A stretch of DNA of 64,000 bases from Patescibacteria group bacterium (GCA_041662585.1 JBAZSG010000002.1:81525-145524); one strand, 5' to 3'; numbered from the stretch's first letter, positions 14,950 through 15,511 are shown. Numbers and translations: made by a program. The notes: generated by a model not told the origin, from the sequence alone.

Positions 14950-15023
14950 GGCCACGTAGCCAAGTGGTAAGGCAGAGGTCTGCAAAACCTTTATCAGCGG
15001 TTCGATTCCGCTCGTGGCCTCCA
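14950..15023 (+). tRNA. tRNA-Cys (anticodon GCA)
   Basis: GGCCACG acceptor, anticodon loop CTGCAAA, T-loop GGTTCGATTCC, encoded CCA. Confidence 0.75.
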
Positions 15024-15092
15024 TTATAAGAATAAAAAAGGTTACCCTGTAATGGGTGGCCTCCACCCTTTGTTCCTCGCTAATGCTCGGAG

Positions 15093-15209
15093 CTACGGGT
15101 GGCAAGCCAATTATATAGCATCGTCTCAAGTAGACGATTTTTTTAATATACAAAAAAACAGCTCAAAAGCTGAATCTATATTAACAAAAGTTGGCCTGCC
15201 ACCCGTAGC
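15093..15209. repeat. 19-bp inverted repeat (CTACGGGTGGCAAGCCAAT / GTTGGCCTGCCACCCGTAG, 17/19 match) flanking about 80 bp that contains a terminator hairpin. Further GGGTGG/CCACCC hairpins at 15057-15071 and 15197-15227.
   Basis: Seen by eye between tRNA-Cys and tRNA-Leu. Confidence 0.45.
15120..15145 (+). terminator. intrinsic terminator (ATCGTCT-CAAGT-AGACGAT + TTTTTTT)
   Basis: 7-bp stem plus 7 T, downstream of suhB-like gene and tRNA-Cys. Confidence 0.5.
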
Positions 15210-15225
15210 CCCTAGGGCGAAGGGT

Positions 15226-15311
15226 GGTACCGGCGATCGGACTTGAACCGATACGGCATTGCTGCCACAGGATTTTAAGTCCTGCGTGTCTACCAATTTC
15301 ACCACGCCGGC
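15226..15311 (-). tRNA. tRNA-Leu (anticodon UAA), long variable arm
   Basis: Reverse complement: GCCGGCG acceptor, anticodon loop CTTAAAA, long variable arm, GGTTCAAGTCC T-arm, encoded CCA. Confidence 0.75.
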
Positions 15312-15344
15312 ACAATATTAAATATAATCAAATTGTGATAAAAA

Positions 15345-15421
15345 TGGAGCGGGCGACCGGGCTCGAACCGGCGACCTTTTCCTTGGCAAGGAAATGTTCT
15401 AGCCAACTGAACTACGCCCGC
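15345..15421 (-). tRNA. tRNA-Gly (anticodon GCC)
   Basis: Reverse complement: GCGGGCG acceptor, anticodon loop TTGCCAA, T-loop TTCGAGC, CCA. Confidence 0.8.
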
Positions 15422-15438
15422 TCATTTAATAATTCTAT

Positions 15439-15511
15439 ACGAGTGATCCCGCAAAGCGGGACGACCTTTTCCTTGGCAAGGAAATGTTCTAGCCAACTGA
15501 ACTACACTCGC
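15439..15511 (-). pseudogene. tRNA-Gly(GCC)-like second copy with non-canonical T-loop (GCTTTGC), a G1-U72 wobble pair and no encoded CCA; probably a degenerate or pseudo tRNA
   Basis: A 43-bp stretch (15463-15505) is identical to 15372-15414 of the tRNA-Gly (D-arm through variable loop). The T-arm is replaced by GTCCC-GCTTTGC-GGGAT. Confidence 0.4.

Follow-up and report, generated by a model that had tools for sequence, protein, structure and literature searches.

A tRNA-Gly-like gene with neither T-loop nor CCA end in the promoter-proximal slot of a patescibacterial tRNA operon, a probable product of recombination

The DNA analysed here is a window of 64,000 nucleotides (nt) from the genome of an uncultured member of the Patescibacteria (Candidate Phyla Radiation, CPR) close to Candidatus Komeilibacteria (GCA_041662585.1 JBAZSG010000002.1:81525–145524), and within it we have focused on a short transfer RNA (tRNA) locus that contains a T-loop-less tRNA-Gly(GCC)-like gene (15438–15511, minus strand), hereafter the Gly-like element. 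The locus has trigger factor, inositol phosphatase, PolA and HolA as neighbours, and the PolA of the window (15617–18349) is 74–81% identical to PolA of metagenome-assembled genomes (MAGs) labelled Patescibacteria, Parcubacteria or Komeilibacteria. ARAGORN called three tRNAs, all of them also matched by Rfam: tRNA-Cys(GCA) on the plus strand (14950–15023) and, on the minus strand, tRNA-Leu(UAA) (15225–15311) and a tRNA-Gly(GCC) with canonical T-arm, U73 and CCA (15345–15421), which is a working gene. A preliminary description had given the same three genes on the same strands, and had also pointed to a second Gly-like element with a non-canonical T-loop, a G1-U72 pair and no CCA; direct reading and Rfam bear this out, and ARAGORN leaves the element uncalled. 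The AT-rich spacer between the element and the tRNA-Gly, read directly (15422–15437, minus strand), measures 16 nt instead of the 18 first given. Immediately upstream of the element is a strong sigma-70-type promoter (TTGACT-16-TATAAT, 11 of 12 matches, 15552–15525, minus strand), which would serve an operon of Gly-like element, tRNA-Gly and, as final gene, tRNA-Leu. This operon ends in an intrinsic terminator (CAGCUUUUGAGCUG followed by U7, 15152–15172, minus strand, stem 15172–15159 and then a T run), and the tRNA-Cys unit ends in another (15120–15145, plus strand, stem 15120–15138 and then a T run), so that the single terminator reported before is in fact a pair. Both have orthologues in L053 and L011, two of the syntenic loci of relatives that we retrieved through PolA (L numbers designate these loci and contigs throughout).

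The Gly-like element reads, from 5' to 3', GCGAGUG UA GUUC AGUUGGCUA GAAC A UUUCC UUGCCAA GGAAA AGGUC GUCCCGC-UUU-GCGGGAU CACUCGU A, and is followed by UAG. Its acceptor stem, D-arm, anticodon arm (GCC) and variable loop are all normal, and its computed minimum free energy fold is a cloverleaf (−27.6 kcal/mol, z −3.05). The match to Rfam RF00005 reaches 44.8 bits (gathering score 29; E 2.8e-6 for the window) as compared to 67.7 bits for the intact tRNA-Gly, with an alignment that jumps 11 nt of the T-loop; by score and fold alike, a cloverleaf with acceptor, D and anticodon arms is present. The T-arm region is different. These 17 nt (GUCCCGC-UUU-GCGGGAU) make a perfect 7-bp hairpin with a 3-nt loop, far from the T-loop consensus UUCRANY (U54-U55-C56-R57-A58, with a 5-bp stem and G53-C61). 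The ends depart as well, with G1·U72, A73 and UAG in place of the CCA, which is encoded by all four other tRNAs of the window and by 49 of the 54 tRNAs across the examined loci. Just 7 of 17 positions of the hairpin match the T-arm, though its pairing is perfect; it is not a decayed T-arm, which has instead been swapped for a discrete hairpin module. The exact stretch shared with the intact tRNA-Gly, given earlier as 43 bp, is real and spans 44 nt, inside a 51-nt repeat that is 96% identical. In composition, nt 1–50 of the element are ancestral tRNA-Gly, and nt 50–72 are what we call the H-type 3' half (the hairpin plus CACUCGU).

It is evident from these features that the element is a poor candidate for decoding. 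The bacterial glycine identity set consists of G1-C72, C2-G71, U73, C35 and C36 (PMC9976931), from which the element has C2-G71, C35 and C36 but carries G1·U72 and A73 (C73 in L053). Since the T-loop elbow, G1-C72, U73 and CCA are all missing, established tRNA biology predicts neither charging with glycine nor binding to EF-Tu nor entry into the ribosome. One could still think of a working, non-canonical tRNA-Gly (e.g., for non-proteinogenic aminoacylation of cell wall or lipid) that is trimmed at its 3' end, given a CCA and charged by glycyl-tRNA synthetase (GlyRS). The intact anticodon arm and D-arm, together with C2-G71, G3-C70, C35 and C36, would suit such a molecule, and so would a stack of 7+7 bp, which by tRNA geometry should come near the normal acceptor/T-arm length; moreover, staphylococci keep tRNA-Gly species that avoid EF-Tu (PMC9976931). 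However, those staphylococcal species retain T-loop, CCA and identity set, whereas here G1-C72 and U73 are replaced, the CCA is absent in a clade that encodes it almost throughout its loci, and there is neither a T-loop nor G53-C61, all of which makes a working tRNA-Gly very improbable.

The position of the element within the operon is informative about its ancestry. The same promoter and leader (cttgtgttttaa) stand directly ahead of a single canonical tRNA-Gly(GCC) in all retrieved syntenic loci (about 15 relatives), where the acceptor stem is either GCGAGUG/CACUCGC (L052, L055, L056, L058, L103, L011, L002, L003, and L006) or GCGGGUG/CACCCGC (L015, L004, L008, and L031). The acceptor of the Gly-like element is GCGAGUG/CACUCGU. 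Since the single tRNA-Gly of relatives shares promoter and leader with it, and in the first of these groups the GCGAGUG acceptor type too, the element occupies the ancestral promoter-proximal slot and carries the ancestral acceptor stem. The acceptor of the intact downstream gene (GCGGGCG/CGCCCGC) was seen solely in the window genome and in L053, and this gene is the added, lineage-specific one. No tRNA-Gly(GCC) in the clade departs from the 44-nt core, and the identity of the two window copies over it is therefore uninformative on how recent the duplication was. The earlier proposal of a pseudo-tRNA made by partial duplication is thus right in so far as we deal with a pseudo-tRNA-like derivative of tRNA-Gly, but by slot and acceptor it is not the degenerate duplicate.

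Two further arrangements were seen at this end of the locus. L102 (61–136, minus strand) has a tRNA-Gly(GCC) with acceptor GCGGGUG/CGCCCGC (U6·G67), intermediate between the common type and that of the intact gene of the window. In L058 (258–380) and L059 (about 20–135), both on the minus strand, a conserved element of about 115 nt lies between promoter and tRNA-Gly; it opens with a duplicate of tRNA-Gly nt 1–12 (GCGAGTGTAGTT) and folds as an outer stem with a GC-rich hairpin, a layout that parallels the window (a tRNA-derived first cistron and then a working tRNA-Gly) with a different interior. On the other side of the promoter, and divergent from it, there is a polA promoter-like site (TTGGTA-17-TATCAT with TG extension, 15565–15593, plus strand), around which some 90 nt are kept in all relatives.

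The 3' half has counterparts that stand free in two relatives. In L055 the H module lies 15 nt after the canonical tRNA-Gly (GGAAAAGGUC-GUCCCGC-GUU-GUGGGAU-CACUCGC-UCCA), and in L031 (PolA 65% identical) about 60 nt after it (GGAAAAGGUC-GUCCCGC-CCGAA-GCGGGAU-CACCCGC-UCCA), and in both the acceptor strand of the fragment agrees with the tRNA-Gly of its own host. The 11-nt GGAAAAGGTCG is present in both the tRNA-Gly gene and the fragment of L055, and a deletion between these two copies, read from the sequence, gives exactly a tRNA-Gly with the hairpin replacing the T-arm. We infer a recombination event that joined a tRNA-Gly 5' part to an H-type 3' half via GGAAAAGGTCG. Past recombination at a tRNA is the best account of the origin of the element, and we consider it quite probable that the element is a chimera built in this way and not a working tRNA. 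To this extent the preliminary idea of a remnant of integration or recombination holds; no integrase, phage match or mobile gene was found at the examined loci or, for the H module, on the viral contigs scanned.

The fused form accompanied by an extra intact gene is found in the window and in L001/L053 (one organism, PolA P0005). When metagenomes were scanned for tandem pairs of the tRNA-Gly core, the L001 contig was the sole match, and a nhmmer profile of the H-type half retrieved four copies only, two fused and two free, from all retrieved loci. No further copies, fused or free, were present on contigs encoding PolA relatives, most of which end at the tRNA locus, and Rfam gave no other Rfam-only tRNA matches on 26 related loci. 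In PolA, L053 (fused) and L055 (free fragment) are 94% identical and the window is about 80% identical to both, so the distribution is patchy on the PolA tree. The contigs of relatives (L055, L056, L057, L058, L059, L100–L103, and L001) have 5' ends that lie mostly 30–490 nt upstream of polA, at the tRNA locus, which is consistent with repeats breaking short-read assemblies and restricts knowledge of the distribution of the element.

Free and fused copies of a tRNA 3' end bring to mind the attachment sites of integrative elements. The H-type 3' half would then be the attP part of an integrase element targeting tRNA-Gly, the fused gene would be a hybrid of attL type, and the free fragments would be the attR-type remains of elements that have since been deleted, as in accretion arrays or those resembling cis-mobilizable elements (CIME). 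There are direct repeats of the tRNA-Gly 3' end beside the tRNA in L055, L031, L004 and L006, and the window has one after tRNA-Cys; the H module is conserved across deep host divergence and patchily distributed; and precedents exist in the repeated 3'-end copies at ssrA/tRNA integration sites and in accretion arrays (PMC3146451, PMC5704250). Nevertheless, none of the examined loci contains or adjoins an integrase or phage gene, only 15–106 nt separate tRNA and fragment, and a displaced host 3' half should bear a normal T-arm where these fragments bear a foreign hairpin. A scan of viral contigs for the H module with a fixed 3-nt loop gave no matches, and with a variable loop it gave 40 chance matches on contigs of 47–71% GC (most >55%), none in tRNA-Gly context. 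Comparison of syntenic loci found no mobile-element gene at the tRNA in relatives, and we regard an attachment-site remnant as improbable. A group I intron remnant was also considered, tRNA introns being known in Patescibacteria (PMC13011429), and was dropped, as the pieces measure 15–106 nt and there were no intron matches.

Several of these loci hold repeats of their own. Directly after the tRNA-Gly of L006 (5537–5788) a 106-nt unit is repeated 2.4 times at 100% identity, each unit closing with a hairpin and the tRNA-Gly 3' end CACTCGCTCCA, after which a further, different fragment follows (three tRNA-Gly 3' fragments in all, with no Rfam match); L004 (about 5584–5690) has one unit homologous to this repeat. 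In L031 (5812–5925, plus strand) a tRNA-Gly(CCC) is followed by a long hairpin, then by ATCCCGCTCCA, which nearly copies the 3' end of tRNA-Gly, and then by a terminator. The junction between the convergent tRNA-Cys and tRNA-Leu is a variable spot as well; in relatives it accommodates between 0.07 and 4.8 kb of unrelated cargo, with no integrase (L015 2909–5694, L004 682–5468, L006 3389–5360, and L002 203–628). The cargo includes genes for orotidine monophosphate (OMP) decarboxylase-like and SPFH proteins; phosphoribosyltransferase (PRTase), PfkB, SLOG and MFS; and SLOG with a TrpR-like protein. Pfam searches of the open reading frames inserted at this junction in relatives returned metabolic and transport families, and no integrase.

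The comparison of the window with L053 bears on constraint. The Gly-like element is identical at 72 of 73 nt, with its sole change in the hairpin loop, between two genomes in which 53% of the four-fold degenerate sites of PolA differ (saturation is at about 70%). The spacers show 25–40% divergence plus indels: position 73 and the following spacer measure 17 vs. 12 nt, with 3 mismatches and 5 gap columns over 17 columns, and the spacer before tRNA-Leu has 13 mismatches in 33 nt. Of the other tRNAs, tRNA-Leu has changed at 6 of 87 positions and tRNA-Cys at 4 of 74 (compensatory). For the roughly 30 nt of the element outside the core, the probability of one change or fewer is 4e-5 at a rate of 0.35 and 2e-3 at 0.25. 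All the changes seen in H stems leave the pairs intact: in L055 a G-C pair has become G·U, and U in place of C72 makes G1·U72. The loops vary. Taken together, and coming from two genomes, this suggests constraint on the acceptor stem and hairpin.

A neutral scar is one alternative. The element would then be a dead pseudogene of the same origin (recombination or partial duplication at the tRNA-Gly locus), transcribed merely by lying between a promoter and a working tRNA, and the similarity between the window and L053 would come from recent lateral exchange of a cassette of about 170 nt through homologous recombination in the conserved flanks. The absence of the fused form from L055, whose PolA is 94% identical to that of L053, and its presence in the window at 80%, fit this well, as do the decay of position 73 and CCA and the nature of these loci, which are recombination hot spots rich in tRNA-end duplicates. 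However, the spacers inside and next to the cassette are well diverged (17 vs. 12 nt with 3 mismatches, and 13 of 33), the 30 non-core nt of the element have one change, and tRNA-Leu, 33 nt away, has 6; furthermore, a dead gene of 74 nt is unexpected in a streamlined genome. We therefore regard a neutral scar as rather unlikely.

The interpretation that we favour, with moderate confidence, is that of a recombination chimera in the ancestral slot, probably retained by selection as a non-decoding tRNA-like RNA; retention is probable since the element has stayed almost unchanged in a second genome although neutral sites there are near saturation. That the element is selected and functional is, taken by itself, a real possibility that falls somewhat short of an even chance. 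Several points weigh against this interpretation. Only two genomes have the fused form and two the free module. The patchy distribution on the PolA tree means that the cassette may move laterally, in which case the real divergence time would be shorter and the argument from host divergence weaker. The hairpin contains no double compensatory change, and so there is no proof by covariation, just one one-sided change seen by eye, and position 73 with the 3' tail is not conserved (A UAG in the window vs. C AUU in L053). The transcription of the element is predicted, and its sequence points to no particular partner or function. Finally, the syntenic loci are those reached through PolA, and each metagenome or genome scan was confined to one pattern or one protein.

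Under the selected-chimera interpretation, the history would have begun with recombination at the short repeat GGAAAAGGTCG, fusing the 5' part of the ancestral tRNA-Gly to an H-type 3' half, and the complete tRNA-Gly 16 nt downstream would have taken over the translational function. Judging from the anatomy of the operon, the element would be transcribed as the first cistron of the Gly-like/tRNA-Gly/tRNA-Leu unit and probably released by RNase P cutting at the 5' end of the next tRNA. It would fold as a cloverleaf in which acceptor and hairpin stack into about 14 bp (7+7), approximately the normal acceptor/T-arm stack including the T-loop layers, and enzymes that measure this length might still handle it. 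Two classes of role would be likeliest: help in processing the operon, and that of a decoy or competitor directed at a factor that recognizes tRNA-Gly by its anticodon arm or its acceptor stem. The tRNA-like regulatory RNA proposed at the outset thus finds some support, with conservation in two genomes favouring a non-translational role, but the sequence assigns no function to it.

The other conspicuous feature of the locus is an inverted repeat between tRNA-Cys and tRNA-Leu. It was present when the coordinates were rechecked, although the left arm had been placed one nucleotide off (15093–15111): the 19-nt arms are 15092–15110 and 15191–15209, with one mismatch, and extend to 25 nt at 88% (15086–15110 and 15191–15215) with 80 nt between them, a match of which shuffles predict 0.00. 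Each arm belongs to a separate copy of a tRNA 3' trailer hairpin. The right arm is held by the 3' trailer hairpin of tRNA-Leu (15186–15227, minus strand, −21.3 kcal/mol), which reads CCA-CCC-UUCG-(inner hairpin)-GGGUGG-CAGGCCAAC, where CCACCC (the CCA end plus CCC) pairs with GGGUGG. The left arm lies in a second copy of this hairpin (15063–15110, plus strand, −21.7 kcal/mol, z −3.5; CCACCC ... GGGUGG CAAGCCAA), which reads CCA-CCC-UUUG-(inner hairpin)-GGGUGG-CAAGCCAAU and is attached to a duplicated tRNA-Cys 3' end. A third copy follows tRNA-Glu (758–802, minus strand), about 14 kb away from the other two, with the pair CCAUCC/GGAUGG, compensatory with respect to CCACCC/GGGUGG. All three share CCA-YCC-UUYG-(inner hairpin)-GGRUGG-CA..GCCA, with the compensatory change of C-G to U-A. 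The several GGGTGG/CCACCC hairpins noticed originally are accounted for in this way, as five of the 16 sites in the window fall within 15054–15227 and all five are explained by trailer elements.

The duplicated end closes a 42-nt insertion after tRNA-Cys (15024–15065, plus strand, with a hairpin at 15039–15062); it repeats the last 10 nt of the tRNA-Cys gene exactly (GTGGCCTCCA, 15056–15065 vs. 15014–15023), 32 nt after the real end. In form this copy is reminiscent of the 3' half-fragments of tRNA-Gly in relatives. Inside the insertion, UAAUGG pairs with the real CCA end of tRNA-Cys (CCAUUA; 15021–15055, plus strand), so that in the three operon-terminal tRNAs of the window (Glu, Leu, and Cys) the CCA plus 3 nt pairs perfectly with a hexamer 20–29 nt downstream, against a background of 5% for such pairing at any CCA site of the loci. 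The trailer hairpins were not seen in the loci of relatives. While the 3' end matures, they may serve to mask the encoded CCA or to mark it.

The inverted repeat had been proposed as a possible extended cruciform or small structured RNA, and as a single unit it could also represent the terminal repeats of a miniature transposable element. A fold of 15080–15220 is indeed very stable on either strand (−58 to −64 kcal/mol, z about −8). However, two terminators lie between the arms, so that the arms belong to two convergent transcripts, and this pair is ancestral, as L053 and L011 have it and lack the inverted repeat; each arm sits in its own self-contained trailer hairpin, with the third copy elsewhere; there is no target-site duplication and no Rfam match, and the repeat is absent from all relatives. 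Over 14900–15620, a search of Rfam with a permissive E-value had no credible match in the spacer. A long stem across the arms could form only in read-through RNA, and we find a single unit extremely unlikely; the inverted repeat is a by-product of one trailer element present on converging genes.

More speculatively, and we consider this unlikely, Komeilibacteria-like Patescibacteria may keep an undescribed class of tRNA-Gly-derived RNAs together with a lineage-specific tRNA trailer hairpin that masks the CCA. The class may consist of an H-type half-tRNA (variable loop, 7-bp hairpin and 3' acceptor strand), which would stand alone or be joined to the 5' half of a tRNA as a cloverleaf that lacks T-loop and CCA, and may be selected for a non-decoding role, for instance diverting, as a decoy, a factor or nuclease that recognizes tRNA-Gly by its anticodon arm or acceptor end. 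Pseudo-tRNAs are usually written off as decay, but the Gly-like element is a clean chimera with a traceable origin, an operon promoter and near-perfect conservation against a saturated background, and these traits recommend it as a candidate for a tRNA-derived RNA that an organism of minimal genome has put to new use. If it has no function, it is a well-documented recombination scar of limited interest. In either case, the tRNA loci of these bacteria are hot spots that gather short tRNA-end duplicates and hairpin modules, which would explain frequent contig breaks, and tRNA annotation can be misled there (Rfam calls the Gly-like element and ARAGORN does not).

Among known systems, the T-arm-lacking tRNAs of mitochondria also form a cloverleaf without a canonical T-loop, but these have no substitute for their codons and are served by adapted factors, whereas the Gly-like element has a normal tRNA-Gly(GCC) 16 nt away and has lost its 3' end and identity elements. 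The non-proteinogenic tRNA-Gly of staphylococci, which serve the synthesis of peptidoglycan bridges (PMC9976931), are likewise extra tRNA-Gly paralogues altered in the T-arm region so as to escape EF-Tu and the ribosome. They are nevertheless charged and keep T-loop, CCA and GlyRS identity set, whereas in the element G1-C72, U73 and CCA are gone, as is the T-loop in its entirety. Repeats of tRNA and transfer-messenger RNA (tmRNA) 3' ends and accretion or CIME-like arrays (PMC3146451, PMC5704250) share with our loci the partial 3'-end copies beside an intact gene, sometimes several in a row (as in L006) and patchily distributed, but here neither integrase nor cargo lies between the repeats, the units measure 15–106 nt and a foreign hairpin replaces the T-arm. 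The closest documented case is tRNA-Other of Bacillus cereus, a pseudo-tRNA with a regulatory role (PMC3399842), which is also tRNA-derived, fails canonical criteria, sits at a recombination-prone tRNA locus and is non-translational, with a proposed recruitment elsewhere. tRNA-Other stands alone beside a pathogenicity island and is weakly lysylatable, whereas the Gly-like element is the first cistron of an operon, with a plain hairpin for T-arm, no CCA and a role that is predicted.

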